Source: a virus
Lineage: Duplodnaviria; Heunggongvirae; Uroviricota; Caudoviricetes
Length of the DNA stretch: 37,809 nt
IMG/VR virus record: IMGVR_UViG_2602041644_000008
Coordinates: 1 to 37,809 of that record
Reading direction: 5' to 3' (one strand)
The position numbers were made by a program, and so were the translations under genes. The notes beneath the pieces are model-generated. The model worked only from the letters and a program-made list of their open reading frames with translations, was not told the DNA's origin and did not search any database. Positions 532-36,225 of the stretch are shown in pieces; the stretch's first letter is position 1, and every line of letters starts with the position of its first letter.

Positions 532-1071
532 ATGAAGAAAGTTTTTCTTTGCGCCATCTTAACCTCCTTAAGCTATCCGGCTATCGCCTCATCATTGCAG
601 GATCAACTCTCTGCTGTCGCAGAAGCGGAACAGCAAGGTAAAAATGAAGAGCAAAGGCAGCATGACGAATGGGTCGCGGAGCGCAACAGGGAAATCCAGC
701 AAGAGAAGCAACGTCGCGCAAACGCCCAGGCCGCCGCTAACAAAAGAGCGGCAACGGCAGCGGCAAATAAGAAAGCTCGTCAGGATAAACTGGACGCCGA
801 AGCCACTGCGGACAAAAAACGCGATCAAAGTTATGAAGATGAGCTACGCAGCTTAGAGATTCAGAAACAAAAACTGGCGCTGGCGAAAGAAGAAGCCCGC
901 GTTAAGCGAGAAAACGAATTTATCGATCAGGAACTGAAGCACAAAGCTGCGCAAACCGATGTGGTGCAATCTGAAGCTGACGCAAACAGGAATATGACTG
1001 AGGGCGGTCGCGATCTGATGAAAAGCGTGGGCAAAGCAGAAGAGAACAAATCGGACAGCTGGTTTAATTAA
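532..1071 (+). CDS. Host secreted Ala/Lys/Glu/Gln-rich coiled-coil protein (unknown function)
   Basis: N-terminal signal peptide MKKVFLCAILTSLSYPAIASS followed by a highly charged low-complexity region. Strong RBS AGGAGG upstream. Confidence 0.45.
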   Translation: MKKVFLCAILTSLSYPAIASSLQDQLSAVAEAEQQGKNEEQRQHDEWVAERNREIQQEKQRRANAQAAANKRAATAAANKKARQDKLDAEATADKKRDQSYEDELRSLEIQKQKLALAKEEARVKRENEFIDQELKHKAAQTDVVQSEADANRNMTEGGRDLMKSVGKAEENKSDSWFN

Positions 1072-1110
1072 TCGATGTAAGTAACTTCAAGCCTATAATT
1101 CTTGAAGATA

Positions 1111-1142
1111 AAAAACCCTCTGTAGTAACAGAGGGTTTTGTT
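1111..1142. terminator. Bidirectional rho-independent terminator at the host/prophage junction
   Basis: AAAAACCCTCTGT-AGTA-ACAGAGGGTTTTGTT is a perfect 12-bp stem flanked by A- and T-tracts. Preceded by the inverted repeat CTTCAAG..CTTGAAG (1089-1107). Confidence 0.6.
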
Positions 1143-1267
1143 CATTCATAGTGCAGGGATCAAAATCATTCCCACTCAATTATTTACGATACACATAAAC
1201 AATTGACTGATAACAACTTTCTTCCACATGATTTTCACCGTACCGTTTTATATACCGTCACCGGAAA

Positions 1268-1765
1268 TCAGTGCCACGATTTTTGCTTCTTCAGTGAATC
1301 GTATTGCTGTTCGCAGGATTCTCCTGCAATCCGATACTTTTCAGCCTCAGCTGCTGTTGCGTTGTAAACTCGGTTGCTTTCTTCAAGCATGTCGGCGAGC
1401 ACACCGATGACCTTGCTGGCTGGCGTGCCAGTGGGGAAAGATCCGGTATAGTGTTCGGCGAGTCGCTTGGTTTTGTCAAGCTCGGCGCGCAGGCTGTCAG
1501 CAGCGGCATTAGCATGCTCAGCATCAACACGCGCCACATCGATACGGGATTGTGCTTCACGTTCAATTTGTGTTTTCTCCTGATCACGTTGTGACCTGGC
1601 CTTATCATCAGCCTGTTTCTGATCTTCCTGTGCCTGCGCATACCCGGCGTCGTACTGACGACTGCCGTGTGCATTCCAGGCTACAACTCCTGATATGACC
1701 AGAACAGCAAGCATCGCCATGATAACCAACTGTTTCCAGTATGCTTTTGCGAATGCCCAGATCAT
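1268..1765 (-). CDS. i-spanin (Rz-like)
   Basis: N-terminal TM ([18 protein letters not shown]) followed by a charged coiled-coil. Overlaps the endolysin stop (ATGA). Last gene of the lysis cassette. Confidence 0.65.
1291..1539 (-). CDS. o-spanin (Rz1-like) embedded in the +1 frame of Rz
   Basis: Alternate frame within Rz encodes [17 protein letters not shown] with lipobox LLTAC, followed by a Pro-rich short lipoprotein; classic embedded Rz1. The start codon choice (M at 1539) is inferred. Confidence 0.5.
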   Translation of the reverse strand: MWRVLMLSMLMPLLTACAPSLTKPSDSPNTIPDLSPLARQPARSSVCSPTCLKKATEFTTQQQLRLKSIGLQENPANSNTIH

Positions 1766-2391
1766 ACCGCCAGCACCTTACTGGCAGTGATGTATCGCGC
1801 GCGCCGGTCATCAATGCCGTTCCGGCCACCATTGATAAGCAGAGTTACACGTGCAATATCTCCGGTATACTTCATGCAGCCTTTGCTGGAGAAGAACCAG
1901 GCCGCGCTACGAGCCGCGTATTCGTCCTGTGCCAGCAGTTCAGGATTCTCCAGCAGGTCAACTTTCAGACCGTTTCCGCAGTCACGATAGTTATTCAAAC
2001 CGGTAATCTGGATAAGCCCGCGCCCACGGTAATTCCAGCCATCGCCGGGAGCATTGTTACCCATGCGTTTGCTGTATACCAGATTTGCGATCGCGCGCTG
2101 GCGCTCAAGTGGCAATGGTGGTTCACCAGCGCGGCGCCCCAGTGCATTAGCCTGTCCCTGGGTGAGGCGTCCAGTCCGGACAAAGCTTGCCAGTCCGGTA
2201 ACGCTGTAGTTGAAATTCTCCTGCAACCTAGTGAACCCCCCAGACTCATGCCCAACTTGAGCAATAAACATTGCCTGATCTTCTGCTTTGCTGATACCAA
2301 ACTCTTTCATCGCAGAAGTTATATGCGAGAACCAGCGAGCGGCCAGCGCCTCGCTAATACCAGCAGCTCGCTGGAATTGTTTAATCTCCAT
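1762..2391 (-). CDS. Endolysin, glycoside hydrolase family 19 (chitinase-like lysozyme)
   Basis: GH19 motifs [12 protein letters not shown] and [15 protein letters not shown]. Confidence 0.8.
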
Positions 2392-2689
2392 GTTTAGACC
2401 TCGTTATTTTGAAAATCTGAACGACGTTACCGCGCGTTTTAATAACCGCAGCAAGCATGACAGCGTTGATAATGACCTCAGATAAATCCACAGCCATTGG
2501 CGTGCGTAACCAGATTGCATAGACGACACGAACTGGAATACTGGCTGCAGCAACAATCAGGAAATAAGCAAGCCATCCCCCCCATCTTCGGTGTTGTGAA
2601 CCGTTACGCCGGAAAGTGACAACGCGAATTGCTATGCCAGTACAAATAACTGCATTGGTGATAAGCAAAAAAAACTCATGCGTTACCAT
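2381..2689 (-). CDS. Small membrane protein of the lysis cassette (holin/antiholin candidate)
   Basis: About 3 predicted TM helices, basic C-terminus. Overlaps both neighbouring genes. Confidence 0.4.
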
Positions 2690-3092
2690 CGTCTTTTCTC
2701 CCCGGAATTAACTCGCGTGGATTATCGGAACGGTGATAGAGCCAGATGCCAATTCGTACTGCGACGATTGCTGACACAAATGCGCCAGCAGAGAAAACAA
2801 TCCCTTTCTCGAAAGAGTCCTGCGTGATGGTAGGTATCAGGCTGGCTATGCCGATAAGAATTGATGCTGCTGGTTTGTAGAAAAGAAGTCCGCAGAGAAA
2901 ACTAAGCATCGACAAGAGTACGCGACGACGAATTGGGTACTCTACCGCAGAGGTAACAAAAATTACCGCGCCAGCCAAAGCTCCCAAAGCAACCTCAGGA
3001 GGCACTCCTGCTATCACCGCCGCCAGAGAACTCATGCTAAGCCACTGATTTAATGTTTCACTGGTTAGTTGAGCTGACATATTTTCCACCAT
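2676..3092 (-). CDS. Holin candidate (multi-TM membrane protein)
   Basis: 3-4 hydrophobic helices and a charged C-terminal tail. First gene of the lysis cluster. Confidence 0.45.
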   Translation of the reverse strand: MVENMSAQLTSETLNQWLSMSSLAAVIAGVPPEVALGALAGAVIFVTSAVEYPIRRRVLLSMLSFLCGLLFYKPAASILIGIASLIPTITQDSFEKGIVFSAGAFVSAIVAVRIGIWLYHRSDNPRELIPGRKDDGNA

Positions 3093-3301
3093 TTATATGC
3101 ATAACGACCCCCTAAATAGTAAAACATCATGCATGATAAACCATTTGTGGTTTTTTGTTACCCTGACATCGTCAATCCCCTGCCTTTGATGTCGATAATA
3201 AGGCTCGCCTTTTACATAACTCTGAACAGATTGCAGTACAGAAATGATTTAAAATATAGAGGCTTAGTTGAATTCCGCGCCATCAAATGGCGCGGTAGCA
3301 G

Positions 3302-3586
3302 TCAAATATAGAAATAAACACCAAAACAAACAGTAACAGGAACAACAAAGTCAAACAGGCTTCCAACATCCCATACGCGCGGATCAAAACCGCCCCACCA
3401 CGGCATGTTCATACGCTTGCCATGCCCGAACATTTCAATCCAGCGATATTCTGCCTGGGTGTGTTCACGCGCAATGAAGAACGTACAACCAGCTATCGCT
3501 CCATAAGCCCAGTTTCCGGTAAAAAGGCCAATCAGTACCTGCGAAGCCACAGCACAAAACGCATGAAGGAAAGGTGTTATATCCAT
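3302..3586 (-). CDS. Small polytopic membrane protein (94 aa), unknown function
   Basis: Start reassigned to MDITPF, which follows AAGGAG-N6-ATG; the upstream 21 codons of the tracked ORF lack an RBS. Several TM helices. Sits between tailspike and lysis genes, where epsilon15-like phages carry O-antigen-modification or exclusion genes. Confidence 0.5.
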   Translation of the reverse strand: MDITPFLHAFCAVASQVLIGLFTGNWAYGAIAGCTFFIAREHTQAEYRWIEMFGHGKRMNMPWWGGFDPRVWDVGSLFDFVVPVTVCFGVYFYI

Positions 3587-22452: not shown

Positions 22453-23154
22453 TTATTTGCCATAGAGCACTTCGGCCGCACTACGCTGGCCTTCATTACC
22501 ACCGGTGACCATGCCATCTTCAGACATCGCCTTTCCGATTTTCACGAACGTTTTGACCAGATCAGGGTGATTACCCAGCCCGGTGGTGTTCAGATATTCT
22601 TTGAGTTCAGGTGTCCCGAACTGGTCAAGCGCACGCTGTGCGGCGCTAAGGTTAGAAATCAACTTGTCGCCACCGATTTCTTTGTCAGCTTTTACATCAG
22701 CAGCCCACTGCTCGGTTGTTTTCTGCCAGGCTTCTGCCTGGCGCTGCTGAACACCTGCCAGAATCTTCGGATAAGCATCAACCAGCTTTTGCGCTTGCTC
22801 GTTGGTCAGGTTAAGTTCTCGCGCCACCGGCTCGAATTCCTTCAACGCTTCTGTATCCAGCTCTACGCCTTCGGCAGCCTGAAACTCGTACTTCTCCGGC
22901 GCACCATCCGGTTTATCGCCGTCCTTTTTTTCACCCTGCTTATCGCTTTCAGGCTTTTTGTCATCAGCAGGTTTATCGCCATCAGCAACAGGTTGCGGCT
23001 TATCACCTTCTTGTTGTGATGGATCACCAACTGGAGCATGGTTATCACCTGCAGGCGCTGACGGTTCTGACGCAGCCGGAGCTGCTCCACCATCGACTGG
23101 TTGCTCATTGCAAAGACGGCGATACAGCAAACGCTCAAATAAATTCATGATCAC
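22453..23154 (-). CDS. Scaffolding protein
   Basis: Highly acidic, Pro/Asp/Lys-rich N-terminus and helical C-terminus. Sits between portal and capsid genes. Confidence 0.6.
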   Translation of the reverse strand: MIMNLFERLLYRRLCNEQPVDGGAAPAASEPSAPAGDNHAPVGDPSQQEGDKPQPVADGDKPADDKKPESDKQGEKKDGDKPDGAPEKYEFQAAEGVELDTEALKEFEPVARELNLTNEQAQKLVDAYPKILAGVQQRQAEAWQKTTEQWAADVKADKEIGGDKLISNLSAAQRALDQFGTPELKEYLNTTGLGNHPDLVKTFVKIGKAMSEDGMVTGGNEGQRSAAEVLYGK

Positions 23155-23447
23155 TCCTGTTCACTGGCCTCTTTGGCCATCTTCAAATACTGTTCAGGGC
23201 AATGCGCCATAACGCGCTGAAACAGTTCCAGCGCCAGATTGCGTTGCCCCTCATTAAATGCCATTGCCATAGCGTCCATCGGTGAGATAGCGGAAAACAC
23301 ACGGCCTTTCTCCAGCACCGACCAGACAACGCGACGCCCCTGTTCACTGCTCATGACAAAGCGAATGTCATCAATTTCACGCTGCGCCATGTCACGTTGC
23401 TTACGGGCGTTTTCTTCTTTCAGTTGATCGTCTTCGTAATCTGTCAT
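23151..23447 (-). CDS. Hypothetical protein (98 aa) between portal and scaffold
   Basis: Overlapping start/stop coupling with neighbours. Confidence 0.4.
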   Translation of the reverse strand: MTDYEDDQLKEENARKQRDMAQREIDDIRFVMSSEQGRRVVWSVLEKGRVFSAISPMDAMAMAFNEGQRNLALELFQRVMAHCPEQYLKMAKEASEQE

Positions 23448-25123
23448 TGTGATTGCCCACCCTGACCACTAACTGCATTCGCCATAGCTGACAAAACACT
23501 CGGATCCGAAGTTTTAGCTTCGCTTAGCGTCTTGGCACCCTGTGCCGCCGCCATCCCCATCGCCATCATTTGTTGCTGCTGTTGCTGCTGTGCCCGTTGC
23601 TGGCGAGCCTGCTCAACCTGTTCCTGCGGAACAATGACGGTTGGAGACACTCCGGACATATCAGCGAATGCATCGATCGCCTGATCAACGTTGAGTTTGT
23701 CGAGAGCTTCTGGTTTCGCTTGCGCAAGTTGACCAATGAAGTTGACCGTAGACGCCAGACTGGACAGGCCGATAGACTTCTGCGCCTGAGCCATGACGGA
23801 AATGTATTCGACCTTCAGGGGCATACCTTCCATCGCGTCAGGCGGTGGCGGCAGCATGTTTTTACGCACCATCATCGAGAAAGAGCGGTCAATGAGAGGA
23901 TTAAGACATTCGTCGTTCAGACGCTCCAGAACCGGCCCCAACATCAGAAGTTTTTCTTCTTTCATTTCGATCACCGCTTCAACAGGCATCGAGCGGGTAT
24001 TGATGTTCTGCAACATCATGAACAGATCGACAAAGTAGGCGCTGTTAATGATTTGACGAGTGTCCTGAATGTCTGCTACCAAATCTGCTGTACTGGGGTT
24101 AACCAGATAAGCAGGCCTGAAGCCATCCTGACCAGTAATCTGATCGATATACGTGATGTCGCCAGGAAGAAGGGAGGCGCGCTGATTCTTGAGGGAAATC
24201 GGAGCAACCATCGGCGGATTGGTGGCTTTATCAATCAACTGCGACTTGCGCTTCTGGAGAAGCTGCAATGCCTTAACAGGTCCAAGCGCCAGCATACCCG
24301 GGCATGATGATCCATAAACATCTTCGCCGTTAACTTCCCAGCGCGGAGCCATAATTGGAAACTCATCGAATCCGGACTCACGCAACAACTTGTCGTTATC
24401 GCCACCAACCTCGTAATAAACCGATTTGAATGGCTTGTTCTTGCTATCCAGCTTCGATGTATCGCGGTCAATGTTCGGGTAAACCGAATGCATCACTTCA
24501 ATCCACTTCTCGTAGGTGCCGCTTTCCCACATGCTTTTTACGGATTCGCTGACGTTATTTAGCCCGAACTCCTGAACAAGCTGACGAACAGTCATAGAGA
24601 ACTTGCGAAAACAGGTGTCCACACTGCCACGAGGTGAGTTAGCCAGGTAGTAACTGCCTATCGGGAATGGCATTGTGCGAATGATGTCCTCGTCATCCTC
24701 CAGCACTGCCATTGCACCAGTGCTGTATGTGCCGAGGCTTCCGTATAACTGCGGCAGCGACTGATAGAGATTCGACTTATTGAACATATCGTTCATGCGG
24801 TTCTGCACCGCCTCAAGCCACAACTTAACAGGGCCATAATCCATCATTTCAGGATCTGGCGTAGCCAGGCGAAACCACGGACGCGCGGGGCTTGTGATGC
24901 CTGACATCATGCCGCTGGCGAGAGTGCGCGCCGCCATAGTCCCGGTCGAATCAATAATGCGTGTATTGCGTCGATCGTTACGGTTGACCTCAGAAGTCAG
25001 AAAGCGGGAACCACGCGGGTTGATGTAATCACTCAACTCGCGCCAGTGCGGCTCGAACGACTGACGCTCGCTTTCAAGTTGTGCGAACTGTTTGTTCAAT
25101 CGCTCTTTAGTTGTTTCCGCCAT
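23444..25123 (-). CDS. Portal (head-to-tail connector) protein, T7 gp8-like
   Basis: 559 aa. C-terminal QQRAQQQQQQQMMAMGMAAAQG..AMANAVSGQG parallels the T7 gp8 C-terminus (QQKMAQQSMQMGMDNGAAALAQGMAAQ). Confidence 0.75.
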   Translation of the reverse strand: MAETTKERLNKQFAQLESERQSFEPHWRELSDYINPRGSRFLTSEVNRNDRRNTRIIDSTGTMAARTLASGMMSGITSPARPWFRLATPDPEMMDYGPVKLWLEAVQNRMNDMFNKSNLYQSLPQLYGSLGTYSTGAMAVLEDDEDIIRTMPFPIGSYYLANSPRGSVDTCFRKFSMTVRQLVQEFGLNNVSESVKSMWESGTYEKWIEVMHSVYPNIDRDTSKLDSKNKPFKSVYYEVGGDNDKLLRESGFDEFPIMAPRWEVNGEDVYGSSCPGMLALGPVKALQLLQKRKSQLIDKATNPPMVAPISLKNQRASLLPGDITYIDQITGQDGFRPAYLVNPSTADLVADIQDTRQIINSAYFVDLFMMLQNINTRSMPVEAVIEMKEEKLLMLGPVLERLNDECLNPLIDRSFSMMVRKNMLPPPPDAMEGMPLKVEYISVMAQAQKSIGLSSLASTVNFIGQLAQAKPEALDKLNVDQAIDAFADMSGVSPTVIVPQEQVEQARQQRAQQQQQQQMMAMGMAAAQGAKTLSEAKTSDPSVLSAMANAVSGQGGQSQ

Positions 25124-25771: not shown

Positions 25772-25848
25772 GTGGCATTAGCTCAGTTGGACAGAGCAAC
25801 CGCCTTCTAAGCGGTTGGTTGCAGGTTCGAATCCTGCATGCCACGCCA
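25772..25848 (+). tRNA. tRNA-Arg (anticodon UCU)
   Basis: Cloverleaf: acceptor GTGGCAT/ATGCCAC, D-arm GCTC..GAGC, anticodon stem ACCGC/GCGGT with loop CTTCTAA, T-arm GCAGG-TTCGAAT-CCTGC, 3' CCA encoded. Resembles argU. Confidence 0.85.
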
Positions 25849-25891
25849 GAATCACGCCTAAGGACCGTGATGCCAGAAGTTCCAGGTGCTT

Positions 25892-25934
25892 GGCGGTGAC
25901 AGTTTCCCTTGAAGGACTATCACCGCCCTTTTTA
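25892..25934 (+). terminator. Rho-independent terminator after the tRNA
   Basis: GGCGGTGA...TCACCGCC followed by CTTTTT. Confidence 0.6.
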
Positions 25935-26011
25935 CAGCAGGACGCCATTGCGATGACTTCATGCTGTAAACCCGTACAGCCACGGAAGGCATAACTCATT
26001 GCTTCCAGTTC

Positions 26012-26038
26012 GCCCGGTTCGCCGGGCATTTTTTTAAG
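26012..26038 (+). terminator. Terminator-like hairpin 10 nt upstream of the Gp49-like start
   Basis: GCCCGG-TTCG-CCGGGC followed by ATTTTTTT, then RBS AAGGTGAG. Confidence 0.45.
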
Positions 26039-26046: not shown

Positions 26047-26403
26047 ATGAACGACCAGCAAATCGAAAAAGAAATCGTTGAGAAAGGCAAAACCGCTCCG
26101 CGAGTTACGCCTCAATATATCGAAAGCATCATTCTTGAAGAGCATTTCTTTACTGCTTATGACGGCATTCGTGCTGCCAATATGGGCGTTGGCGATACGT
26201 GGACAGCGCATAAATCTACAGACCTCCTTACTTTCTGCGTACTGGTGCTGAAGAATGGCTTCACCGTCACCGGAGAGAGCGCATGTGCAAGCCCGGAAAA
26301 CTTTGATGCAGAAATTGGTCGGAAGATTGCCAGGCAGAATGCTGTAAACAAAATCTGGATGCTTGAAGGTTACTTGCTGAAGCAGAAGTTAAGCGAGCAA
26401 TAA
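26047..26403 (+). CDS. Gp49-like phage protein (unknown function)
   Basis: RBS AAGGTGAG. Sequence resembles the small Gp49 family common in enterobacterial prophages. Opposite strand to the flanking late genes. Confidence 0.5.
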   Translation: MNDQQIEKEIVEKGKTAPRVTPQYIESIILEEHFFTAYDGIRAANMGVGDTWTAHKSTDLLTFCVLVLKNGFTVTGESACASPENFDAEIGRKIARQNAVNKIWMLEGYLLKQKLSEQ

Positions 26404-26406
26404 CAC

Positions 26407-26420
26407 CGTGACATGTCACA
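26407..26420. repeat. Palindrome CGTGACATGTCACA (copy 1), at the 3' flank of terL and the Gp49-like gene
   Basis: Perfect 12-bp palindrome GTGACATGTCAC. Identical 14-mer recurs at 28673-28686. Confidence 0.6.
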
Positions 26421-26423
26421 AAC

Positions 26424-26451
26424 AGCCAGCCTATGAGCTGGCTTTGTTTTA
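26424..26451. terminator. Terminator AGCCAGC-CTATGA-GCTGGCT followed by TTTGTTTT
   Basis: 7-bp stem plus T-tract on the plus strand and an A-tract on the other side (weakly bidirectional). Separates terL and the Gp49-like gene. Confidence 0.55.
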
Positions 26452-26493
26452 TCCTCACCAGAGGATATCAACGACATTATCCCCACCAGCGGA

Positions 26494-27969
26494 TTAAGCA
26501 TAGGGATCGTAATCTGTAATGGCCTTGCCTTGCTGGTTCTGCTGACCTGGAATTCGCAGACGCTTCGACACAGGGAAAGCAAACGTCAGCAATAGCGCAT
26601 CGCCTTTACCCGGCGAACGCCCAAGCCGCTCCTTGATATCTTCCTTCGGTTCGATAACGATTTTACCGTCCACTCGAACTTTGTACTCTGCCGCCGACAG
26701 GTCGTCCGCTGTTTCCTGGTCATCAAGCATCCCGCCCAGCCTCAGCCATGTCTTGCATGAGTTGAACATCTCCCCACGCTTGTTGAGCATCTGCGGGTCA
26801 GTAGACGCGCCACCGAACGGAACAAGTTGCCATGTGCGCCCCCAACCGTCACCGATTGACTTCAGACCGGTACCGTAACCAAAGTCGATGAACACTGCGT
26901 CAGCCTGATACAGGTCTTCAAAGTCAGCGATACGCTTCGCCATAATCAGATCGTCGGTAGTCTTGTTGCCAGTCCACAGCACCTTACTGTGTAGCCCCTG
27001 CCGCAGGTATATCACCGCGTCATCAACGCCTGAATATGCCGGGTCAACACCGATTATCACCGGAGCATGCGCCACCTGCGCAGCGGTTACCACCCGTTTC
27101 ATTGCCTCATCAGTAAGACCGGTAGGGATAAACTGCAATTCAGATGCATCAGGGAATATGCCGCGCACACGGATTTTAACGAAGTCGCTGTCTTCCCCGT
27201 AGTCATCAACCCATTTCTGCAACTGCTGTTTGTTAGTGCCTTCCACCGTCCGGCTGTCAATCTGCGCAGTTTTCCAGCGGTGTTTATATTTGCGGAAACA
27301 TTCGCGGAAACGCCCGGTGTTACGTGTAGGGTTTCCGAACGCCACCCAGATAATCTCAGTGTCTTCGTCCGTAAGCGCACCCTCAGCAACTTCCCACACC
27401 AGATCCGCAATGTTCGACGCTTCATCGAATACCACGATGATGCGTTTGCGCTCGTTGTGTAGTCCGGCGAATGCCTCAGTGTTGTGCTCAGACCAGGGTA
27501 TTGCGTCAGCCCGCCACCGCTTGTCGTGCCCAGGGTCATTGCTGTACATCGCGGTAGCGGTACAGGTAAACCAGTCTTTCGTGATAGCAAGGTTAGACCA
27601 CTTGATAATTTCCGGCCAGGTCTTCGTTCGTAGCTGGTTGTCGGTGTTAGCGGTCACCACAACCTTACAATCCTCGCAAGTGGACATGCCCCAGTTGATC
27701 AGCATTGAGATGAATGCGGATTTACCAATACCGTGACCAGAAGCGCGTGCCAGCATAAGCGGCTGATAGCGCGTCTCTGGATTCTGCAGGTGATCACGTA
27801 TCTCTCGGAACGCATCAGCCTGCCACTGACGTGGGCCGGTGGCATGTGCCAGTTCAGTCCCCTCTTCCCCCCACGGGAACGCATAGAGAGCATAGCCAAG
27901 CGGATCGTGAGTGAACCCTGCAATATCCTCGATCAACTGCTCTTCAGGAGATAACGCTGTATCTGTCAC
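26494..27969 (-). CDS. Terminase large subunit
   Basis: 491 aa. ATPase region GHGIGKSAFISMLINW (Walker A-like) and VVFDEASNI (Walker B-like). C-terminal nuclease-like region. Overlaps the terS stop. Confidence 0.85.
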   Translation of the reverse strand: MTDTALSPEEQLIEDIAGFTHDPLGYALYAFPWGEEGTELAHATGPRQWQADAFREIRDHLQNPETRYQPLMLARASGHGIGKSAFISMLINWGMSTCEDCKVVVTANTDNQLRTKTWPEIIKWSNLAITKDWFTCTATAMYSNDPGHDKRWRADAIPWSEHNTEAFAGLHNERKRIIVVFDEASNIADLVWEVAEGALTDEDTEIIWVAFGNPTRNTGRFRECFRKYKHRWKTAQIDSRTVEGTNKQQLQKWVDDYGEDSDFVKIRVRGIFPDASELQFIPTGLTDEAMKRVVTAAQVAHAPVIIGVDPAYSGVDDAVIYLRQGLHSKVLWTGNKTTDDLIMAKRIADFEDLYQADAVFIDFGYGTGLKSIGDGWGRTWQLVPFGGASTDPQMLNKRGEMFNSCKTWLRLGGMLDDQETADDLSAAEYKVRVDGKIVIEPKEDIKERLGRSPGKGDALLLTFAFPVSKRLRIPGQQNQQGKAITDYDPYA

Positions 27970-28563
27970 TGATTACCATCCTGACGTTCTTTGAGTCGCT
28001 TCCTGGCTGCCGCTATGCGATCAGCAATTGTCACATTCACATTAACATCCAGGCGTTCTTTGAACGCGTTGACATCAACATGCTTACCAATCAGCTCAAG
28101 GTTCTTCACCTTGTCAGGCCATTTAATTTTTTTGAGGATTGTCTCTATCGAATCCTCGTTCATGTTCATGATGGTCGATGACAGATCAAAGCCACTAAGC
28201 GTAGTGCGCCAGATTTTCGGCCACTCACGGATTGGTTTAAGGCTCCCATCGTCGTTGAGGATGTCGATCACGTCCATCTGGTCGATCTCCACCAGGCGCA
28301 TGAGAACGTAATCAGCACTGACGCGCATTCGTTTGTTGCGCTCCTCCATCAACTCGGCAATCCGTTTTTGAATGCGTTCATCGCGCATCATGACACTGGC
28401 TTTAACTGCCGCTGTATTTGGGGAGAATCCTGCGTTAATCGCTGCCTGAGTTTGGTTTTCAGGCGTTTTGATGTATGACTGGCAATAAGCCTCCTGCATT
28501 GTTGTTAGTGGCTTAAATTGCGTTGATTTGCGTTTATAGGTTTTAGGTTCAGCAGGCATCATA
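27966..28563 (-). CDS. Terminase small subunit
   Basis: Start moved to MMPAEPK; the tracked N-terminal 26 codons translate the operator/terminator repeats. HTH-like N-terminus and basic C-terminus. Directly upstream of terL. Confidence 0.65.
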
Positions 28564-28595
28564 ACCACCGTGGTAATAGTTACCGTTGTGGTAAT
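28561..28595. promoter_or_regulatory. Two adjacent operator-like dyads (ATAACCACCGTGGTAAT and GTTACCGTTGTGGTAAT) over the terS start region
   Basis: 6-N5-6 dyads matching the genome-wide motif. Located between the upstream terminator and the terS ATG. Confidence 0.5.
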
Positions 28596-28602
28596 AGTAC
28601 CA

Positions 28603-28631
28603 TGCAAAATAAAGCCGCCATAGTTGGCGGC
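28603..28631 (-). terminator. Rho-independent terminator upstream of terS (end of early/nin transcription or tR'-like element)
   Basis: Minus strand GCCGCC-AACTAT-GGCGGC followed by TTTATTTTG. Confidence 0.55.
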
Positions 28632-28672
28632 AGTATTCAAAATCCATCAAATTCATCATGCATAATCTACTC

Positions 28673-28686
28673 GTGACATGTCACAC
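28673..28686. repeat. Palindrome CGTGACATGTCACA (copy 2), upstream of terS
   Basis: Identical 14-mer to 26407-26420. Overlaps the stop codon of the 28681..29028 gene. Confidence 0.6.
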
Positions 28687-29028
28687 TATTAATTTCGTTT
28701 CATGCCAGCCTTTAGTCACCCAGCATTGCGAGTCACCATTACACGGGCATGAATTAACGGGAACTCTCTCGCCGCACTTACCGCAAAGTTTTCTGCTGAT
28801 CGATTTTATACGCCCGCGCACACGTGCATCATCCTGGCGGATCAGCAGCGCGATGTACTCGGCCATTTCATAGGGATCGCGACCAGGGCGCCGGGCGGCG
28901 CAGTTCCGCGCCAGCATTTCCTGCTCCTGCTTATCCAGCACCAGTTCAATTTTGCGCTCACCGGCGGCGGACTGCCGAGCGCGCTGCGCGGCTTTGCGTT
29001 CTGCGGGGGATTTAGCCACGAATCGCAC
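28681..29028 (-). CDS. Basic protein with C-terminal Cys cluster (CGKCGERVPVNSCPCNGDSQC); candidate zinc-binding late-gene regulator
   Basis: Arg/Ala-rich N-terminus and putative zinc finger. Immediately upstream of the palindrome/terminator/terS region, by analogy to Q/Ogr-type positioning. Confidence 0.4.
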   Translation of the reverse strand: MRFVAKSPAERKAAQRARQSAAGERKIELVLDKQEQEMLARNCAARRPGRDPYEMAEYIALLIRQDDARVRGRIKSISRKLCGKCGERVPVNSCPCNGDSQCWVTKGWHETKLIV

Positions 29029-29134
29029 TCCACGCCAGATTGATTAATGACTCCCAGGCAATATAAACCCGGATACCAGCAGCCAGGCCGAAACCAATCA
29101 CCATGGCATAAAGCAGAGCGTTGCACTTGTTCAT
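29015..29134 (-). CDS. Tiny hydrophobic peptide (39 aa, MNKCNALLYAMVIGFGLAAGIRVYIAWESLINLAWSAIRG)
   Basis: Untracked short ORF with one TM helix, coupled (ATGA-type overlap) to the upstream gene end. Speculative. Confidence 0.2.
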
Positions 29135-29904
29135 TACTTCACCTCCTGCGGTGGTTCCGGTAGCGGCATCCAGTGGGTTGCTTGCTCAATACCATTACCC
29201 GGCTTAATCGTTGCATCTCCGCGCCGAAAGGTGCTTCCGGTATAGCGTGCGGAGCATATTAGCGGTTCAACCAGAGAGCTATCGAAATTCACCGAAATAA
29301 GCACGTTCTGGCCCTTTTCAGGCATTCGCTCACTACAGCTTATCCAACCATCCGGAGTTACCGGAGTTGGTCCATCGAATTCGGGCATGTCAGGACCTTT
29401 TCTGATAGCTTTAGCCAGCTCCAGCGGGTCATCGTAAAGCCAGTCGCCAGTTTGTGGGTGATTTGCTTCTGCAAGCTGCGCAGCCCATTCAAGACCATCT
29501 TTTTGACCTTGGAGATAATCAAGTGGCAACTCTTCATGATTACTTGCAGGTTCGGCACCATGAAGCATGGCGGCGCGGCAGGCGTTCCAGCCTCTCACCT
29601 CTGCAATAGCGGCAACAGCATCAACCGCGTACATGCTAAGAGGATTAGGCATTGGTTTTTCTTCCGGTACTACTGGCACTGGAGGGGTGGCGTAGAGTGG
29701 AACTCCTCCCCCTCCACCAGAAAATTCATTGCGAGCGTTATACTCACGACCATCTGCGTCATCACGCATCCACGCCACCGCTTCTGCTTCCAGCGATGCC
29801 AGTGCGATTTCATAAGCCCGACGCTCAATATTGTCTCGGACGTCCAGGCTGCCTATACGCTCTCTGATTTCTTTAATCAGTTCTTTGTCGGTTAAAGTGG
29901 TCAT
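29134..29904 (-). CDS. DUF551-domain protein
   Basis: C-terminal DGWISCSERMPEKGQNVLI...ATHWMPLPEPP resembles the DUF551 module frequent in lambdoid early regions. Confidence 0.5.
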   Translation of the reverse strand: MTTLTDKELIKEIRERIGSLDVRDNIERRAYEIALASLEAEAVAWMRDDADGREYNARNEFSGGGGGVPLYATPPVPVVPEEKPMPNPLSMYAVDAVAAIAEVRGWNACRAAMLHGAEPASNHEELPLDYLQGQKDGLEWAAQLAEANHPQTGDWLYDDPLELAKAIRKGPDMPEFDGPTPVTPDGWISCSERMPEKGQNVLISVNFDSSLVEPLICSARYTGSTFRRGDATIKPGNGIEQATHWMPLPEPPQEVK

Positions 29905-30434
29905 GCTGCGTTTCCTTCTTTCTTATTAACAATTACACCGTCATATATTTCATTAAGGTGTCCTCTTAGCTCCATGCGCCTTAATGCAGATAACATGTAA
30001 TCGCATTCAACCTGCTTATTCCCAGTAAATGGCTTATCGTCAGGATTACCCCAACAGCAATTACCCCTGGGCCATCCATGTACTTTCCGTACTCTTCCGT
30101 TAACAACGTGAAGTAATCCCCAGCCGGGAGGTAAATCCTCAACTGAAATAATTTCCGGCTCACTAATAAAGAATCGCCAGTCGCCCATGCCAAGTGAGGG
30201 ATTTTTACGGAAACGCTTTTTTCTATCTGCCAACAAGTCAGCACGAGAACACTTCGCCTCTATCAGGCATGATGCTGAATTTCTGAATCCCATAGCATCT
30301 GGCTGTTCTCCGGTACTGGTTACAGCAACAAAGCGGTCATGAAAGCAAACCTTGAACCCGTTGCGCTTAAGGAACTTGTACGCAATCTGACAGAGTTCGT
30401 GGTGTGTTAACGCCATATCACTTTCCTTTCCCAT
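29901..30434 (-). CDS. PD-(D/E)XK nuclease-like protein (VRR-NUC-like motif)
   Basis: GEQPDAMGFRNSASCLIEAKCSRADL fits the G-PD...IE-K VRR-NUC pattern. Confidence 0.4.
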   Translation of the reverse strand: MGKESDMALTHHELCQIAYKFLKRNGFKVCFHDRFVAVTSTGEQPDAMGFRNSASCLIEAKCSRADLLADRKKRFRKNPSLGMGDWRFFISEPEIISVEDLPPGWGLLHVVNGRVRKVHGWPRGNCCWGNPDDKPFTGNKQVECDYMLSALRRMELRGHLNEIYDGVIVNKKEGNAA

Positions 30435-30452
30435 GTTGTCATGTGTTAGTCC

Positions 30453-30716
30453 TTATCCTGCTGTGCTTTCAACTGATGAGGGGAATAAAATCTTTTCATC
30501 AAATCCGGCATTCATATCATGGACAGCAACACACCAATCCATCGACGAACGATTATCAAGAGCCTCCATGATTTCATCCATGCGGCGCAGGTCATACAGG
30601 TAAATGCTTTTATCGCCAATGGTGTAAAAACCAATTTTTTTCGGTGATGGGCAGCGATCAAGAACGTCCTGTAATTCGCTCAACCATGCTTGTTCTTTTT
30701 TTGTCAAAGTTGCCAT
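30453..30716 (-). CDS. Hypothetical protein (87 aa)
   Basis: ORF in the nin-like region with appropriate spacing. No domain recognised. Confidence 0.4.
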   Translation of the reverse strand: MATLTKKEQAWLSELQDVLDRCPSPKKIGFYTIGDKSIYLYDLRRMDEIMEALDNRSSMDWCVAVHDMNAGFDEKILFPSSVESTAG

Positions 30717-30717
30717 A

Positions 30718-31212
30718 TCACTCTCCTTTGATGCGAATGCCAGTGGTACTCATTCTCCTGATTTCCCAGAGCACACGAGGAACACCACCGTTTCCGACCG
30801 GATCGCGCTTACTCCGCATGGCGACGCTTGATTCCGCCCAGCTTTTTCTTGGAGGAAGCTCTTTCACACGAACAAAACCAGCTGCGCGAAGAGATGCTCC
30901 TGATTCATCTGCCTGGGTGTACGTAATACAACGTTGATAACCCATAGCCTTTGCTGCCCGCCAGACAGCACCATAAAGCGCGCTGTTAGCGTTGCGTTCT
31001 CCTGTGGTACATGTGCGATTTACTTCAAGCGTTAATCCATCGTCCAAATGTCGTGCAACAGGTCGACCAGCTGTCGCCACACCTATCAATTCTCCGGCAT
31101 TATTTCTCAGACCAATGCTGAATTTATGCCCCACTGGTGGTTTATTGTGTCGGTGGTGCTGTGCGATAAATTCCTGCGCCGCTTTCAGCGTTATAGGTGA
31201 AATGACCATCAC
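30718..31212 (-). CDS. GNAT-fold acetyltransferase-like protein (tentative)
   Basis: IGLRNNAGELIGVATAG and ERNANSALYGAVWRAAKAMGYQRCITYT resemble GNAT motifs. Weak call. Confidence 0.3.
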   Translation of the reverse strand: MMVISPITLKAAQEFIAQHHRHNKPPVGHKFSIGLRNNAGELIGVATAGRPVARHLDDGLTLEVNRTCTTGERNANSALYGAVWRAAKAMGYQRCITYTQADESGASLRAAGFVRVKELPPRKSWAESSVAMRSKRDPVGNGGVPRVLWEIRRMSTTGIRIKGE

Positions 31213-31901
31213 TCAGACTCCTCCTTGATGCCAGCGGCGCGGGAATCATTCCATCGCTTTACTTCTTCACGAATTACGTCAATGCATTCTTTCGAATCCA
31301 TTAGGTAATCTTCATCAAAAAGACGTTCCTGTTCGTTTTCTATCGCAACAATGATTGCTTCAACTAATTTTTGTGCCTGAGAATCACTTTCTAACTCTGC
31401 AATGCGCTTCTCTGCGGCTTCCAACTTCTCGCGCATATCGTCAACGTACTCGACCAGAGAACCGCCAGCAGGAATTTCGCACTCCTCGACCAGTTGGAAG
31501 TAGATATCAGCTGCGGCCCGTGTGTTGCTATGCCTAGCGTCGCCCATCTCACCTTCACGAAGAGCATCGCGTTCGGCGGTAAGATTGGCTATTTTGCTGT
31601 CTTTGCCTTCCAGCTCAACGCGCAGCTTCCCTACCGTTAGCGCAATATCCTCGTTCTCCTGATCGCGGGATTTGATGTATTGCTGGTTCCTTTCCCGTTC
31701 ATCCAGTAGTGCCAAAGCAACCTTTGGATTAAAGGCAGCAATAAATTCAGCGTTGTTTTTCAGAACGTGTTGCGCAATGGCCTGACCACTTAGTCGGACC
31801 TTATAACCACGTGCGCCACGGTGTGGTTTATATGAGTCCCAGTCTCCCCACGTTGCTTTTTCTGCCTTTTCACGCAGTGCCTGATAGTTAATGTTGGTCA
31901 T
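31209..31901 (-). CDS. Ead/Ea22-like protein
   Basis: N-terminus MTNINYQALREKAEKATWGDW is typical of the Ead/Ea22 family. Coiled-coil middle. Confidence 0.55.
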   Translation of the reverse strand: MTNINYQALREKAEKATWGDWDSYKPHRGARGYKVRLSGQAIAQHVLKNNAEFIAAFNPKVALALLDERERNQQYIKSRDQENEDIALTVGKLRVELEGKDSKIANLTAERDALREGEMGDARHSNTRAAADIYFQLVEECEIPAGGSLVEYVDDMREKLEAAEKRIAELESDSQAQKLVEAIIVAIENEQERLFDEDYLMDSKECIDVIREEVKRWNDSRAAGIKEESE

Positions 31902-31902
31902 A

Positions 31903-32202
31903 TCACATCACCCTGAAGCCGTTGCATTTACGTAAAAAATCGCAGATATAGCCCTTCATTTTTTCGTGCCAATCTCGATCATTCCCATTGCACCAACCAT
32001 CAGGTGGAGTCCAGTTTTCTATCAGAGCAGCCATTTTCTTTGCTTTCGCCGGAGTAGCTGTTGCGGTATCGCAGTAATGACGAGTGTCAACCAACGTATC
32101 CATACCATCGATATCAAGTACGCAAAACCATGTGTGATTCGGAATTCCTACAGGTGGTATTTGTTGCCCACGTCGACGTTTATCAATAAGATATACACTC
32201 AC
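31903..32202 (-). CDS. Hypothetical protein (99 aa)
   Basis: ORF with coupled start/stop. Cys/His/Trp-rich. Confidence 0.4.
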   Translation of the reverse strand: MSVYLIDKRRRGQQIPPVGIPNHTWFCVLDIDGMDTLVDTRHYCDTATATPAKAKKMAALIENWTPPDGWCNGNDRDWHEKMKGYICDFLRKCNGFRVM

Positions 32203-32768: not shown

Positions 32769-32829
32769 CTTTACCCTCGCTTATCCACATAACTTATTGA
32801 TTACACTGATAACTAAAAAGATCGTCGAT

Positions 32830-33174: not shown

Positions 33175-33176
33175 GA

Positions 33177-33193
33177 TTTACCCATGAGGTAAT
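33177..33193. promoter_or_regulatory. Operator dyad TTTACCCATGAGGTAAT
   Basis: Abuts the start codon of the 32830..33174 gene. Confidence 0.5.
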
Positions 33194-33238
33194 TAAAAAC
33201 CACATAAGACACGAAATCAATAGATCTTAGAACATTTT

Positions 33239-33291: not shown

Positions 33292-34092
33292 TTACTTGAT
33301 AAATCCTGCCGCCTTTCCCCGCCTGTATTCCTCCATCAGCCACTGCGCCGGTGTTATTCCCCCCAGGGTAGCGGCGTTAGGCATACACCCGAAACTTCGC
33401 CCTGGTGGATGGTAAACGCCTCTCCCTGTGTCCGGAGGCGTACTCATGGGTTCTGGCTTTGCCTGTATGCTGATCACCGGATCGGGTATCTGCTGTCCGG
33501 AAGCCACCTTTTTCGCCCAATCATCAAGCAGCCTGCGCGCGTGTTTCTCAACCTCAATCTCGCTAAGCTGGCGCTGATACATTGCACGGCGGGTATCACA
33601 TACGACCCAGTACATAACCGGATGCCGCCACGGGAATCTTTCGGGACCACCAGGATATAAACTTTTTTCCTTGCTGTACCGGTGAAACTCCGCCATCACA
33701 TCGTCAATGGTGACGCCAAGAACCATCTTGCTGTCTTTACACCACTTGATAAATTGCCCTGGCGACGGCCAGAACGGAGATTCACTGGCGCGGGCGTGGC
33801 GCATACCAGCAGAAACCTGTTCACGGGTTCGGATCCCCCCTTCGGCAAACGCAGCAATCCACTGCTGTTTTGCAGCAACTTCCTGCTCTGGCGTCTTCAG
33901 GTTGGTTACCACTGCCGCCGGAAACAGTTGTTTCAACTGTTTGAAAAGGGCATCAACAAGCCTCTCTGCTGACATGTTCACTACGTTGTCATTGTTGGTG
34001 TACTGATGCTCATAACCTGACATGCGAGAAAGGGCTTCTCCGTCACGGTTTTGTATCGCGGTAAAAACGTTGTTCACAAGAAATCCTCCCAT
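33292..34092 (-). CDS. Replication protein P-like (lambda P family, DnaB helicase loader)
   Basis: EQEVAAKQQWIAAFAEGGIRTREQVSAGMRHARASESPFWPSPGQFIKWCK aligns closely with lambda P QNEVNEIRRQWVLAFRENGITTMEQVNAGMRVARRQNRPFLPSPGQFVAWCR. Confidence 0.75.
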   Translation of the reverse strand: MGGFLVNNVFTAIQNRDGEALSRMSGYEHQYTNNDNVVNMSAERLVDALFKQLKQLFPAAVVTNLKTPEQEVAAKQQWIAAFAEGGIRTREQVSAGMRHARASESPFWPSPGQFIKWCKDSKMVLGVTIDDVMAEFHRYSKEKSLYPGGPERFPWRHPVMYWVVCDTRRAMYQRQLSEIEVEKHARRLLDDWAKKVASGQQIPDPVISIQAKPEPMSTPPDTGRGVYHPPGRSFGCMPNAATLGGITPAQWLMEEYRRGKAAGFIK

Positions 34093-34889
34093 GCTTCAGG
34101 GCTGTTCCAGTGCGGAACGTTGTTATCAGGTAATGTTGATTGCTTCTGTCTGCTAATCTGCAGCCGCCTTGCCAGCTTCTGCTCCCACTGTGCCTGATGG
34201 TATGCCCTACCCTCAGCCATCCAGTAAATTCTGAACTCTGCAAGTTCCTGTGCCGTTGGCAGACTGTCCAGGTAGATCCCCTGCAATGAGCTTTTCCGAA
34301 GAAAGTCATCTGATGGCTGCCATTGTTCATGCATGACAAATTTGCCTAATTGCCCTGGCCCACCAGGAGGAACAAAGTTATTCATCACGGCGTTGTTTGC
34401 GCCGGGGTCATGATGCACAGAATCCCCGTTTTTTGTCCTGCTCTCCCTCTCTTGGTTAAATGACTGGTTATATGACTGGTTCTGGATCCCGTTTTTGGGA
34501 TCATTCAACATCCCGTTTTTGGGATCATTCAACATCCCGTTTTTGGGTATATTCCCGTTTTCGGGAACATTACCGTTTTCGGGTTCATTACCCCCTTCCC
34601 GGTTGCCTTTAATGTTCCCGTTTTTGGTTATATTAAGAGAGAAAACCCGCACTCTTTTCGTCGCTCCCTTTCTCTCTCCGGTATCTGAAATAAGCCCCAT
34701 TTTCATGAGCGATATAAGCCCGGCCTGCACGGTTTTTTTATTCAGGCAAGTGTCTTTAACGAGGCGTTCTATGCTGGGGTAGCAGAGGTTATATTCATCG
34801 GCTCTGTCAGCCATCGAGAGCAGTATGAGCTTTAATGACGAGCTACCTGGATCTGTCTCCCAGGCCCAATCTGTTGCATGTCTGCTCAT
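34074..34889 (-). CDS. Replication initiator (lambda O-like: N-terminal HTH DNA-binding domain, Asn/Gly-rich repeat linker, C-terminal domain)
   Basis: RBS GGAG-N8-ATG. Peptide repeats (ENGNVPENGNIPKNGMLNDPKNGMLNDPKNGIQ) encoded by iteron DNA inside the gene, as in lambda O. Position is immediately upstream of the P-like gene. Confidence 0.6.
   Translation of the reverse strand: MSRHATDWAWETDPGSSSLKLILLSMADRADEYNLCYPSIERLVKDTCLNKKTVQAGLISLMKMGLISDTGERKGATKRVRVFSLNITKNGNIKGNREGGNEPENGNVPENGNIPKNGMLNDPKNGMLNDPKNGIQNQSYNQSFNQERESRTKNGDSVHHDPGANNAVMNNFVPPGGPGQLGKFVMHEQWQPSDDFLRKSSLQGIYLDSLPTAQELAEFRIYWMAEGRAYHQAQWEQKLARRLQISRQKQSTLPDNNVPHWNSPEAWEDFL
34476..34630. repeat. Origin of replication: about 6 iterons (ATCCCGTTTTTGGGAT-type dyads) plus adjacent AT-rich stretch, inside the O-like gene
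   Basis: GATCCCGTTTTTGGGATC x2 (34476, 34500), ATCCCGTTTTTGGGTAT, TTCCCGTTTTCGGGAAC, TTACCGTTTTCGGGTTC, TTCCCGTTTTTGGTTAT, then ATATTAAGAGAGAAAA. Also direct repeat ATGACTGGTT x2 (34451-34472). Confidence 0.65.
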
Positions 34890-35255: not shown

Positions 35256-35486
35256 TCATGAGTAGAAGAAGTATGCCAGTTCTGCTTTTGAGTGCAGCCA
35301 TTGTCTTGATTTACAGGCTTTAAAAAGCCCATTCATCAATACCTTACCTGGCATTTTGCGCTTACCTGTTAAGTGAGTCTGGATATAGTGACTCGTCGTT
35401 CCGGCTTCCTGTGCGAAGGCTTCACGCTCATCCGGAGTAAGTGCAAGCCAGTGCTTTTTGAAATCGAAATGTCCGTTATCGCTCAT
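35256..35486 (-). CDS. Cro/CII-like HTH regulator (first gene of the early operon divergent from the repressor)
   Basis: HTH segment FAQEAGTTSHYIQTHLTG resembles the CII-type HTH. Position equals cro. Confidence 0.55.
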   Translation of the reverse strand: MSDNGHFDFKKHWLALTPDEREAFAQEAGTTSHYIQTHLTGKRKMPGKVLMNGLFKACKSRQWLHSKAELAYFFYS

Positions 35487-35640: not shown

Positions 35641-36225
35641 ATGAAAAGTATCCAGGACGTCCGCAGGCAAAATCTCAACGACTTGATCGACCGTGAATTC
35701 AATGGTGTTCAGACGCGGATGGCTGAAAAACTTGGAACTCAGGCAAATCTGGTAAACCGCTGGGCTCTTGGCAAGAAGGTTATCGGCGACCAGGTTGCGC
35801 GAAAAATTGAAGCTGCCGCCAATAAACCCCGTAACTGGCTTGATATCGATCGCTCGCTTTCTCAGGAAGGTTTTCAGCCTGTCGGACCAAGCGACATTGG
35901 TCAACTGGCGGCTCACAACCTGGAACGCTGGATGAGCGAAAGCCGCGACCTTTCAACGCAGGGAAAACTTCACCGCGCATCCGGCGTCGCCCAGGTAACA
36001 ATCAGCCGCCTGTTAAACAATGAGGTCAGCGTTTCCATTTCCACCCTGGAGAATGTTGCATCCGCATTTGGGCGTCACGGATATGAATTACTGATTCACC
36101 CGCACGACCCCGCGACTATCAACTATGACCGCTCGCGCTACGCATTGTTACCTGAAACAGAGAAGGCAAAGATCGAAAGTTACATTGAATTTGTCATCAA
36201 CCAGAACGAAAAAAACAAACAATAA
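35641..36225 (+). CDS. Prophage repressor, two XRE-type HTH domains, no S24/LexA-like peptidase domain
   Basis: HTH1 TRMAEKLGTQANLVNRWALGKK. HTH2 LHRASGVAQVTISRLLNNEVSVSISTLENVASAFG. No Ser/Lys autocleavage module. Divergent from cro with three operators. Confidence 0.65.
   Translation: MKSIQDVRRQNLNDLIDREFNGVQTRMAEKLGTQANLVNRWALGKKVIGDQVARKIEAAANKPRNWLDIDRSLSQEGFQPVGPSDIGQLAAHNLERWMSESRDLSTQGKLHRASGVAQVTISRLLNNEVSVSISTLENVASAFGRHGYELLIHPHDPATINYDRSRYALLPETEKAKIESYIEFVINQNEKNKQ

Follow-up and report, generated by a model that had tools for sequence, protein, structure and literature searches.

The stretch of DNA considered here (the window) is positions 1 to 37,809 of IMG/VR virus record IMGVR_UViG_2602041644_000008, i.e. 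37,809 nucleotides (nt) of an epsilon15/phiV10-like (Uetakevirus) prophage, in which the terminase genes terS and terL are flanked by two identical copies of a 14-bp sequence, CGTGACATGTCACA. The subject is this sequence and its relation to a small regulator gene that ends within one of the copies. An exact search of the 37.8 kb gives two occurrences, at 26407-26420 (copy 1) and 28672-28685 (copy 2), and both copies hold the same perfectly palindromic 12-bp core, GTGACATGTCAC (26408-26419 and 28673-28684). An earlier reading made from the letters alone (the sequence-only reading) had already recognised that two identical palindromic 14-mers bracket terS-terL, which is correct; only its coordinates for copy 2 (28673-28686) were 1 nt too high.

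On the minus strand, a run of early, nin-like small genes (29134-35174) precedes the regulator gene (28681..29019, minus strand), which encodes 112 amino acids from a GTG start at 29019 (or 115 from an alternative GTG at 29028) and corresponds to phiV10 p55 and epsilon15 gp49. Copy 2 includes the TGA stop codon of this gene (28681-28683) and lies approximately 40 nt upstream of an intrinsic terminator on the same strand (28606..28633; GCCGCCAACTATGGCGGC followed by TTTATTTTG, with the hairpin at 28631..28614), which is situated between copy 2 and terS. The bracketed block itself consists of terS (27966..28559, minus strand; Terminase_2 family, Pfam PF03592, 2.2e-29) and, as its second gene, terL (26494..27969, minus strand; phrog_2, terminase large subunit), both of which are annotated as such in relatives. 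Copy 1 is found 74 nt past the terL stop (26494), where it adjoins a bidirectional intrinsic terminator (26421..26451, given on the plus strand; AAACAGCCAGCC-TATGA-GCTGGCTTTGTTTT, hairpin 26424-26443) that begins directly after it and is common to terL and a convergent moron. This moron (26047..26403, plus strand) belongs to the N4 Gp49 / Sf6 gene 66 family (Pfam PF13876, 1.6e-34), and its TAA is followed by CAC (26404-26406) and then by the 14-mer, so that the stop codon and copy 1 are 3 nt apart and the sequence after the stop reads CACC plus the 12-bp core. In relatives, the slot of the convergent moron is filled by unrelated genes.

A sigma-70-like promoter at copy 2 is possible, given a weak match, GTGACA-18-CATGAT (28655..28684, minus strand; 9 of 12 positions), whose -35 element coincides with the first arm of the palindrome. 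Promoter-like matches in the copy 2 region do not exceed the expectation from shuffled sequence, and on inspection of the relatives by eye this one is conserved in only part of them, while at copy 1 no conserved -10 element is seen in either direction. Further downstream, between the pre-terS terminator and the terS ATG, a direct repeat, GGTAATAGT(T)ACC, occurs twice (28567-28600) and includes a degenerate TTACC...GGTAA dyad (28580-28594, 2 mismatches to TTACCT-N3-AGGTAA, a second dyad family of this window); this part of the terS leader may be a repressor or TerS site.

By itself, a repeated 14-mer in 37.8 kb is unremarkable, 37 of them being counted across the window. Perfect 12-bp palindromes number 7 (versus 9.2 expected), two of which are identical; the chance of such a pair is, by our own arithmetic, p ~ 21/4096 = 0.005, with a further factor of 1/16 for the matching flanking bases. 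The decisive proof against chance is rather given by the comparison with relatives. Both positions keep GTGAC-NN-GTCAC (GTGACNNGTCAC) in 8-9 diverged relatives with differing flanks (the phages compared at both positions being phiV10, phiv142-3, PAS61, HEMP4, ZX5, Klebsiella Kp4865-1 and ST11-OXA245phi3.2, Enterobacter BUCT554 and Salmonella PAT1). In some of these, the neighbouring terminator sequence differs while the arms of the motif stay, and in all of them the arms are invariant, with AT, AC or CT at the centre. The last two residues of the regulator, the codons of which overlap copy 2, vary among homologues (IV, MI, SV, LL, PL, TM and others), whereas the overlapping DNA does not, and the constraint therefore acts on the DNA. 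On this comparative evidence the palindrome is shown to be under selection at the DNA level, and the combination of invariant arms with a variable centre is the signature of a site for a dimeric protein on DNA, and not that of an RNA stem. The 14-mer is, judged from these alignments, one instance of a cis-element with the consensus Y-GTGAC-NN-GTCAC-R (i.e. 5-bp arms that do not vary, on either side of 2 bp that do). A near-copy, GCGCCATGTCAC, is present at 23384-23395, in the overlap of two minus-strand genes (23151..23447 and 23444..25123); it is kept among relatives, reading GTGCCATGTCAC in phiV10 and others, and is probably a coding coincidence.

The linkage between the motif and the regulator was examined in loci that were collected solely by protein similarity to the 112-residue product (34-100% identity, at least five phage lineages), the motif never being used as a query. 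In the epsilon15-like loci, 133 motifs are found in 1.29 Mb (1.2 expected), with at least one motif in 79 of the 80 loci. P2-like prophages, where the homologue is 38% identical and placed after replication gene A, have 65 motifs (0.55 expected) distributed over 62 of 74 loci, and in a Proteus-type epsilon15-like group (approximately 50% identity) 41 of 64 loci carry the motif. The enrichment is roughly 100-fold in four independent locus sets. Among the 512 possible palindromes of the 5-2-5 type, GTGAC-NN-GTCAC ranks first in each of the four sets, and it alone reaches a share of 50% or more of the loci in all of them. The search of the prophage and its relatives, which the sequence-only reading had put forward as a check, thus returns two copies in the window and a strong, non-random enrichment in related loci.

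In individually fetched phages (N15, phiKO2, a Yersinia phage and two Vibrio phages), a site is located on the 3' end of the regulator gene or within 250 nt of it. N15 gp46 and phiKO2 p45 have CGTGACTGGTCACG overlapping the stop codon, as does Yersinia vB_YenM_201.16 gp13 with TTGTGACGCGTCACAA; in Vibrio VPHZ6, CGTGACAGGTCACG starts 1 nt after the regulator TAA, and in Vibrio K308 one copy is found 226 nt downstream of the regulator gene while a second precedes the terS ATG by 19 nt. In the epsilon15-like, N15-like and Yersinia phages, the first arm supplies the TGA stop, in a common register (G-TGA-C). N15 has three copies in total, at 28550 (between gene 33 and a terminator), 33237 (inside repA) and 39269 (on the gp46 stop codon), all with TG/CA at the centre. 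An Aeromonas phage with a 34%-identical protein has only a variant, GTGACCGGACAC, which occurs twice, once 25 nt before the regulator start codon. Since the arms never change, this Aeromonas variant being the sole exception, covariation between protein and site specificity could not be used. In canonical P2, neither the regulator gene nor a perfect motif was found. Taken across these loci, the sequence evidence shows the motif to be genetically coupled to the regulator gene family in several phage lineages. A further 5-2-5 dyad, CGACC-NN-GGTCG, is repeated in N15 (4 copies) and in phiKO2 (2 copies).

The regulator has phrog_536 ('transcriptional regulator') as its sole family match, no sequence relative was found for it in Pfam, NCBIfam or PDB, and the former two contain no Q-family match either. 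More than 1000 clusters of the family were found. The structure of the regulator was predicted with AlphaFold from a 40-sequence alignment (predicted local distance difference test, pLDDT, of 86), which model was used in place of that from a shallower alignment of 16 sequences (pLDDT 62), the latter being uninformative in Foldseek against PDB. The model starts with a conserved basic helix at the N-terminus and continues with an extended segment and two helices, which are followed by a Cys-rich region (CxxC...CxC...C), and the predicted structure has the beta-alpha-alpha arrangement of the ribbon-helix-helix (RHH) fold. The protein thus models as an N-terminal RHH domain with a C-terminal Cys4 zinc ribbon. 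Proteins of this fold bind, in the textbook case, as a dimer to a short dyad whose arms are fixed and whose centre is free, and a short two-fold symmetric site with conserved half-sites is indeed what lies near this RHH gene. A literature search on the palindrome sequence, Uetakevirus late regulation and RHH/zinc-ribbon phage regulators returned nothing relevant.

Where the motif is placed was studied by scanning viral contigs for the 14-mer and sorting the contexts, in which two recurrent non-coding classes emerged. In the first, the motif coincides with the stop codon or the 3' end of a regulator homologue, in most cases with a terminator 10-40 nt further; this terminator recurs in Salmonella-type and other relatives with differing hairpin sequences. 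In the second, many different genes have the motif at their 3' end, and an intrinsic terminator, which differs from case to case, follows 1-5 nt downstream. Of 44 unique contexts in the epsilon15-like group, 20 have a terminator no more than 10 nt from the motif, compared to 2.5% of random positions, and of 54 contexts in the P2-like group, 32 have one within 60 nt, compared to 6% at random. In the Proteus-type group the association is absent (0 of 31 contexts). Coding hits in lambdoid phages ('RDMSQ', e.g. at the N-terminus of a Q-like protein) were set aside as probable chance matches that are amplified by widespread genes. Also set apart, as a separate phenomenon (iteron-like or coding 'VT' repeats in replication genes), were five GC-rich viral contigs (L031, L079, L117, L050 and L060) with dense arrays of GTCAC/GTGAC half-sites at a spacing of approximately 10-11 nt inside replication-protein genes. 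These arrays encode 'RDMSQ...VT...VT', were detected only because they contain the 14-mer, and may be iterons recognised by another protein.

The motif also coincides with breaks in homology. Alignments of the copy 1 region break at query position 102 in PAS61, 108 in phiv142-3 and 109 in HEMP4 (window 26401-26408), and at least eight unrelated morons end in 'TAA-CACC-GTGACATGTCAC-terminator'. At the equivalents of window positions 9452 and 6413, where the window has no motif, relatives carry the motif together with a different gene; there, it is the variable gene that the motif accompanies, with homology to the window beginning immediately beyond the motif, whereas the motif at terL belongs to the backbone. 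The Proteus-type group has the motif and a common ribosome-binding site ahead of at least six different genes. In the P2-like loci, a degenerate site is followed 24 nt on by a perfect site and 20 nt beyond that by a TGTGAC half-site, in a cos-proximal position between hotspot cargo and variable or portal genes; the defence hotspot that the motif borders here has been described before (PMC9122126). In these cases homology breakpoints are observed to coincide with the motif, and the sites associate with terminators and module junctions. The proposal of the sequence-only reading that the palindromes are module-boundary sequences is borne out insofar as the motif is where homology between relatives breaks and beside at least eight different morons; the support that this lends to a recombination sequence is real, though indirect.

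Following these results, it is likely, on sequence linkage and a structural model, that the adjacent RHH/zinc-ribbon protein has the dyad as its operator. The whole explanation, in which it would be the operator of a homodimeric RHH regulator that acts at the boundaries of transcription units, is more tentative, and we put it forward as a plausible account that could well turn out otherwise. Here, a homodimer of the 112-residue protein (28681-29019, minus strand) would bind both palindromes. Its gene is the last of the rightward early, nin-like block, with one putative site between its stop and the pre-terS terminator, and the second past the bidirectional terminator of terL, where the block meets the convergent moron. 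As the regulator accumulates, occupancy of the sites would set the amount of transcription that crosses the terminators delimiting the terS-terL unit. The mode could be either that of a roadblock or insulator or that of a read-through switch. A modulated passage of RNA polymerase is suggested because the regulator gene closes the early block and its sites flank both terS-terL terminators, and because other copies hug terminators at convergent junctions.

A number of observations weigh against this operator reading. Copy 2 of phiV10 has a mismatch (it reads GTAACATGTCAC), TL-2011b has a degenerate copy 1 that has moved to the other side of its moron, and the viable phage EC.W1-9 has no copy 1 at all, which means that copy 1 is not essential for viability. 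The motif can also exist without the regulator protein, since the HK97-like Aeromonas phage AsXd-1 has two copies (one coding, one on the stop codon of a Cro-like gene, position 11251) and no detectable homologue of the regulator. Placement varies as well: in the epsilon15-like phages the site is at the 3' end of variable genes, in the Proteus-type group it precedes start codons by 17-20 nt, and in the P2-like loci it is either 100-150 nt upstream of variable genes or beyond the 3' end of the portal gene, so that no single promoter/operator geometry emerges across the groups. Finally, N15 and phiKO2 carry an annotated Q-like late regulator and canonical P2 an annotated ogr, which makes a general role as a 'late switch' unlikely; the regulator-bearing P2-like loci presumably have an Ogr-type late activator too. 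The sequence-only reading had seen in the palindromes candidate binding sites for a late-gene regulator and had named a Zn-finger protein (28681..29028) for the purpose. As a regulator site the candidate has gained real, if indirect, support from the motif on the stop codon of that protein, its co-occurrence with homologues in at least five lineages and the RHH model, whereas a specifically late-gene role finds no support, given that the pair of gene and motif is also carried by N15 and phiKO2, with their own Q-like late regulator, and by the P2-like loci, with their presumed Ogr-type activator.

The main rival is that the palindrome, alone or bound by the RHH protein, serves as a recombination linker, i.e. 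a crossover point for cassettes or modules, the position of the junction itself being the function. We consider this unlikely, although it deserves serious attention and the linker and operator readings are not mutually exclusive. The exact breaks in PAS61, phiv142-3 and HEMP4, the common ending of the unrelated morons, the shared element ahead of different genes in the Proteus-type group and the border of the P2-like hotspot (PMC9122126) all fit it, and a motif that goes with the variable gene at 9452 and 6413 but with the backbone at terL is what crossovers inside the motif would yield. However, homologous exchange of the RecA type needs more than 12-14 bp, the motif has no linked recombinase or nuclease, and a patch of homology needs neither a perfect dyad nor a free centre. 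Direct repeats around terS-terL would moreover risk the loss of essential genes, and any selected cis-element within variable DNA would resemble a junction.

An improbable alternative is that the site belongs to a host protein (MatP-like, or another enterobacterial or vibrio factor) and that the linkage to the phage gene is merely syntenic. The arms are identical to those of matS, GTGAC[AG]N[TC]GTCAC (PMC3603311), the motif-bearing phages seen here all have hosts among the Enterobacterales, Vibrio or Aeromonas, and AsXd-1 has the motif and not the regulator. The palindrome is, on the other hand, not matS. The latter is 13 bp long with an RNY centre (GTGAC-RNY-GTCAC; PMC3603311), while every phage copy, including both in the window, is 12 bp with an NN centre, and the 13-bp form, GTGACNNNGTCAC, is absent from the window (even with 1 mismatch) and from approximately 2.4 Mb of relatives. 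A spacer that is 1 bp shorter should misalign a rigid dimer, and prophages are reported to avoid matS (PMC3603311). Homology of the regulator to MatP was not detected by hhalign (probability 0.1), and where MatP has a four-helix bundle and a coiled coil the phage protein has a predicted Cys4 zinc ribbon. The sites of MatP are scattered over the Ter region of the host, those of the phage are at gene ends. The fusion of the site to the regulator stop, in the same register across lineages, would also be hard to explain with a host factor.

Slightly less probable still is a packaging signal, in which the palindrome would be part of a pac or cos recognition region with the RHH protein perhaps as an accessory factor. 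Its position is suggestive, with copy 2 approximately 115 nt upstream of the terS ATG (19 nt for the Vibrio K308 copy) and the P2-like sites between the regulator or hotspot cargo and the portal 3' end, in the reported cos region (PMC9122126), although cos was not located in these loci. The regulator gene directly precedes terS. In HK97-like phages that position is held by HNH accessory proteins. Yet the three copies of N15 are 7-18 kb from cos and all away from the terminase genes, the interval between regulator and terS is free of the motif in the Proteus-type group, copy 1 is dispensable, and two equivalent sites 2.26 kb apart are unlike the organisation of known pac and cos sites. The end of the phiV10 genome record inside the palindrome was rejected as evidence of cos, since it is by annotation convention that the record stops with the last codon of gp55, its stop codon.

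Very little speaks for an RNA element, namely a nut- or RAT-like hairpin read by an antiterminator just before terminators. The order of motif and then terminator at copy 2 and at the moron ends, and the basic N-terminal helix of the regulator, would agree with it. The palindrome hairpin, however, has only -2.9 kcal/mol (z = -0.3 versus shuffles), Rfam contains no match for it, the predicted fold is that of a DNA-binding RHH protein, and in the direction of the late genes copy 1 follows its terminator instead of preceding it. The arms, furthermore, never covary while the centre, which would be the loop, does vary, the opposite of what RNA structure leaves behind. The palindrome was likewise rejected as an intrinsic terminator, its hairpin being no better than those of shuffles; the adjacent hairpins are genuine terminators. 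A chance repeat without function, for which only the number of repeated 14-mers expected in 37.8 kb can be adduced, is practically eliminated by conservation at both sites across genera and by the enrichment in the four locus sets.

With the operator reading preferred, the question is how the system compares to known ones. It resembles RHH repressors (P22 Arc and Mnt, CopG, TacA, ParD, AmrZ) in being a small dimeric beta-alpha-alpha binder (as predicted here) with a short dyad near its own gene, and the tandem sites of the P2-like phages, approximately 35 bp apart, resemble cooperative RHH operators. It differs in that the phage site is on the stop or 3' end of the gene and beside terminators, instead of over a defined promoter, and in that the protein has an extra zinc ribbon and no toxin or immunity partner. 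The synteny is like that of lambda Q with its QBE-pR'-tR' region, i.e. the last nin-like early gene, a putative site, a terminator within approximately 40 nt and then the late (terminase) genes, and a weak promoter-like match, which not all relatives conserve, has its -35 inside the site. Unlike in lambda, the fold is RHH and not that of Q, without a match to a Q family, a second site follows the terL terminator in the late direction, and N15 and phiKO2 carry a Q-like gene as well as the regulator-motif pair.

Late activators of the RinA, ArpU and LtrC types are encoded immediately upstream of terS in phages of Gram-positive bacteria. As with these, a small regulator gene adjoins terS and the target site is in a short intergenic region, but the protein family is unrelated, a terminator intervenes and further sites exist elsewhere. 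Module linkers have been conceived in the Susskind-Botstein hypothesis, and the promoter-stem-loop (PeSL) cassettes of T4-type phages and integron attC sites are comparable elements. The likeness is a short conserved element at the borders of exchangeable cassettes, often with a hairpin or terminator; the phage motif differs in having no linked recombinase and in being a 12-bp dyad, versus a promoter/stem-loop or the 60-120 bp of attC.

Several other features of the window and its relatives were noted. The second dyad family, TTACCT-N3-AGGTAA, has 16 hits in the window at up to 2 mismatches (0.9 expected). It is perfect at 6041, 7161, 7254, 8301, 25435 and 33240, and has 1 mismatch at 33178, 35186, 35523, 35571, 36283 and 36345. 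Because these dyads cluster (35186-36359) around a CI-like gene (35641..36225, plus strand) and a Cro-like gene (35256..35486, minus strand), they are probably the immunity operator, and they also occur between genes in the late/moron part, e.g. at 25435 between the p06/portal operon and a tRNA. The GTGAC palindrome was rejected for that role, as the CI/Cro region carries this other dyad and no GTGAC dyad. Three tandem 24-bp repeats (ATCCCGTTTTTGGGATCATTCAAC...) at 34486-34557, inside an open reading frame (ORF) for 271 amino acids (34074..34889, minus strand), look like origin iterons within a replication-initiator gene, by analogy with lambda O. A tRNA-Arg(tct) gene (25772-25848, plus strand) overlaps an ORF (25778..26029, minus strand) that is annotated as a protein in relatives (phiV10 p04), and one relative annotates the tRNA on the opposite strand. 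The terL of Salmonella PAT1 is annotated with 2451 nt (975..3425), versus 1476 nt in the window, and tblastn matches to terL are split by 1-2 kb in two further relatives (L105 and L058), which suggests an intein or other insertion in the terL of some relatives. In Klebsiella-type relatives (L010 and L272-L276), a perfect LexA box, TACTGTTTATGTATACAGTA, lies just downstream of the GTGAC dyad, between it and a umuD-like moron; going by this box, the moron, between the regulator and terS, is an SOS-controlled one in the same slot. In lambdoid phages (AsXd-1 and loci L035, L120 and L046), the dyad overlaps the TGA of two different Cro/YdaS-like genes, in the register GTG-TGA.

As a kind of system, an RHH regulator with a dyad operator is well known; what is new is the regulator family itself, which has no curated model. 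New as well, on the sequence evidence, would be the fusion of a predicted operator to the stop codon of its own gene in a conserved register, its apparent spread over podo-, myo- and siphovirus-type temperate phages of enterobacteria, Vibrio and Aeromonas, and the systematic placement of what seem to be half-sites identical to those of matS, 1 bp closer together, at terminators and cassette borders. This 1-bp difference from a site that prophages reportedly avoid (PMC3603311) is a further testable curiosity.

A bolder and rather improbable idea is that unrelated temperate phages share a portable boundary element, made up of the RHH/zinc-ribbon protein and its dyad, which marks accessory slots and actively promotes the exchange of cassettes. 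The phages concerned would be the epsilon15-like, P2-like, N15-like and Vibrio ones, and the slots would include the cos-proximal defence hotspot of the P2-like phages. Exchange could be promoted by bridging two sites, or by stalling replication or transcription at them; for the P2/P4 hotspots, the mechanism of exchange was stated to be unknown in a 2026 analysis (PMC13586616). If true, this would be the long-sought physical 'linker' of modular phage evolution.

If the pairing of protein and site holds, a family that is presently labelled 'hypothetical' or 'transcriptional regulator' gains a precise DNA target. Several phage families would then have in common a site, regulatory or architectural, that is met repeatedly at terminators and on the edges of moron and defence slots, which would bear both on the timing of terminase expression in epsilon15-like phages and on why accessory cassettes swap at sharply defined points.

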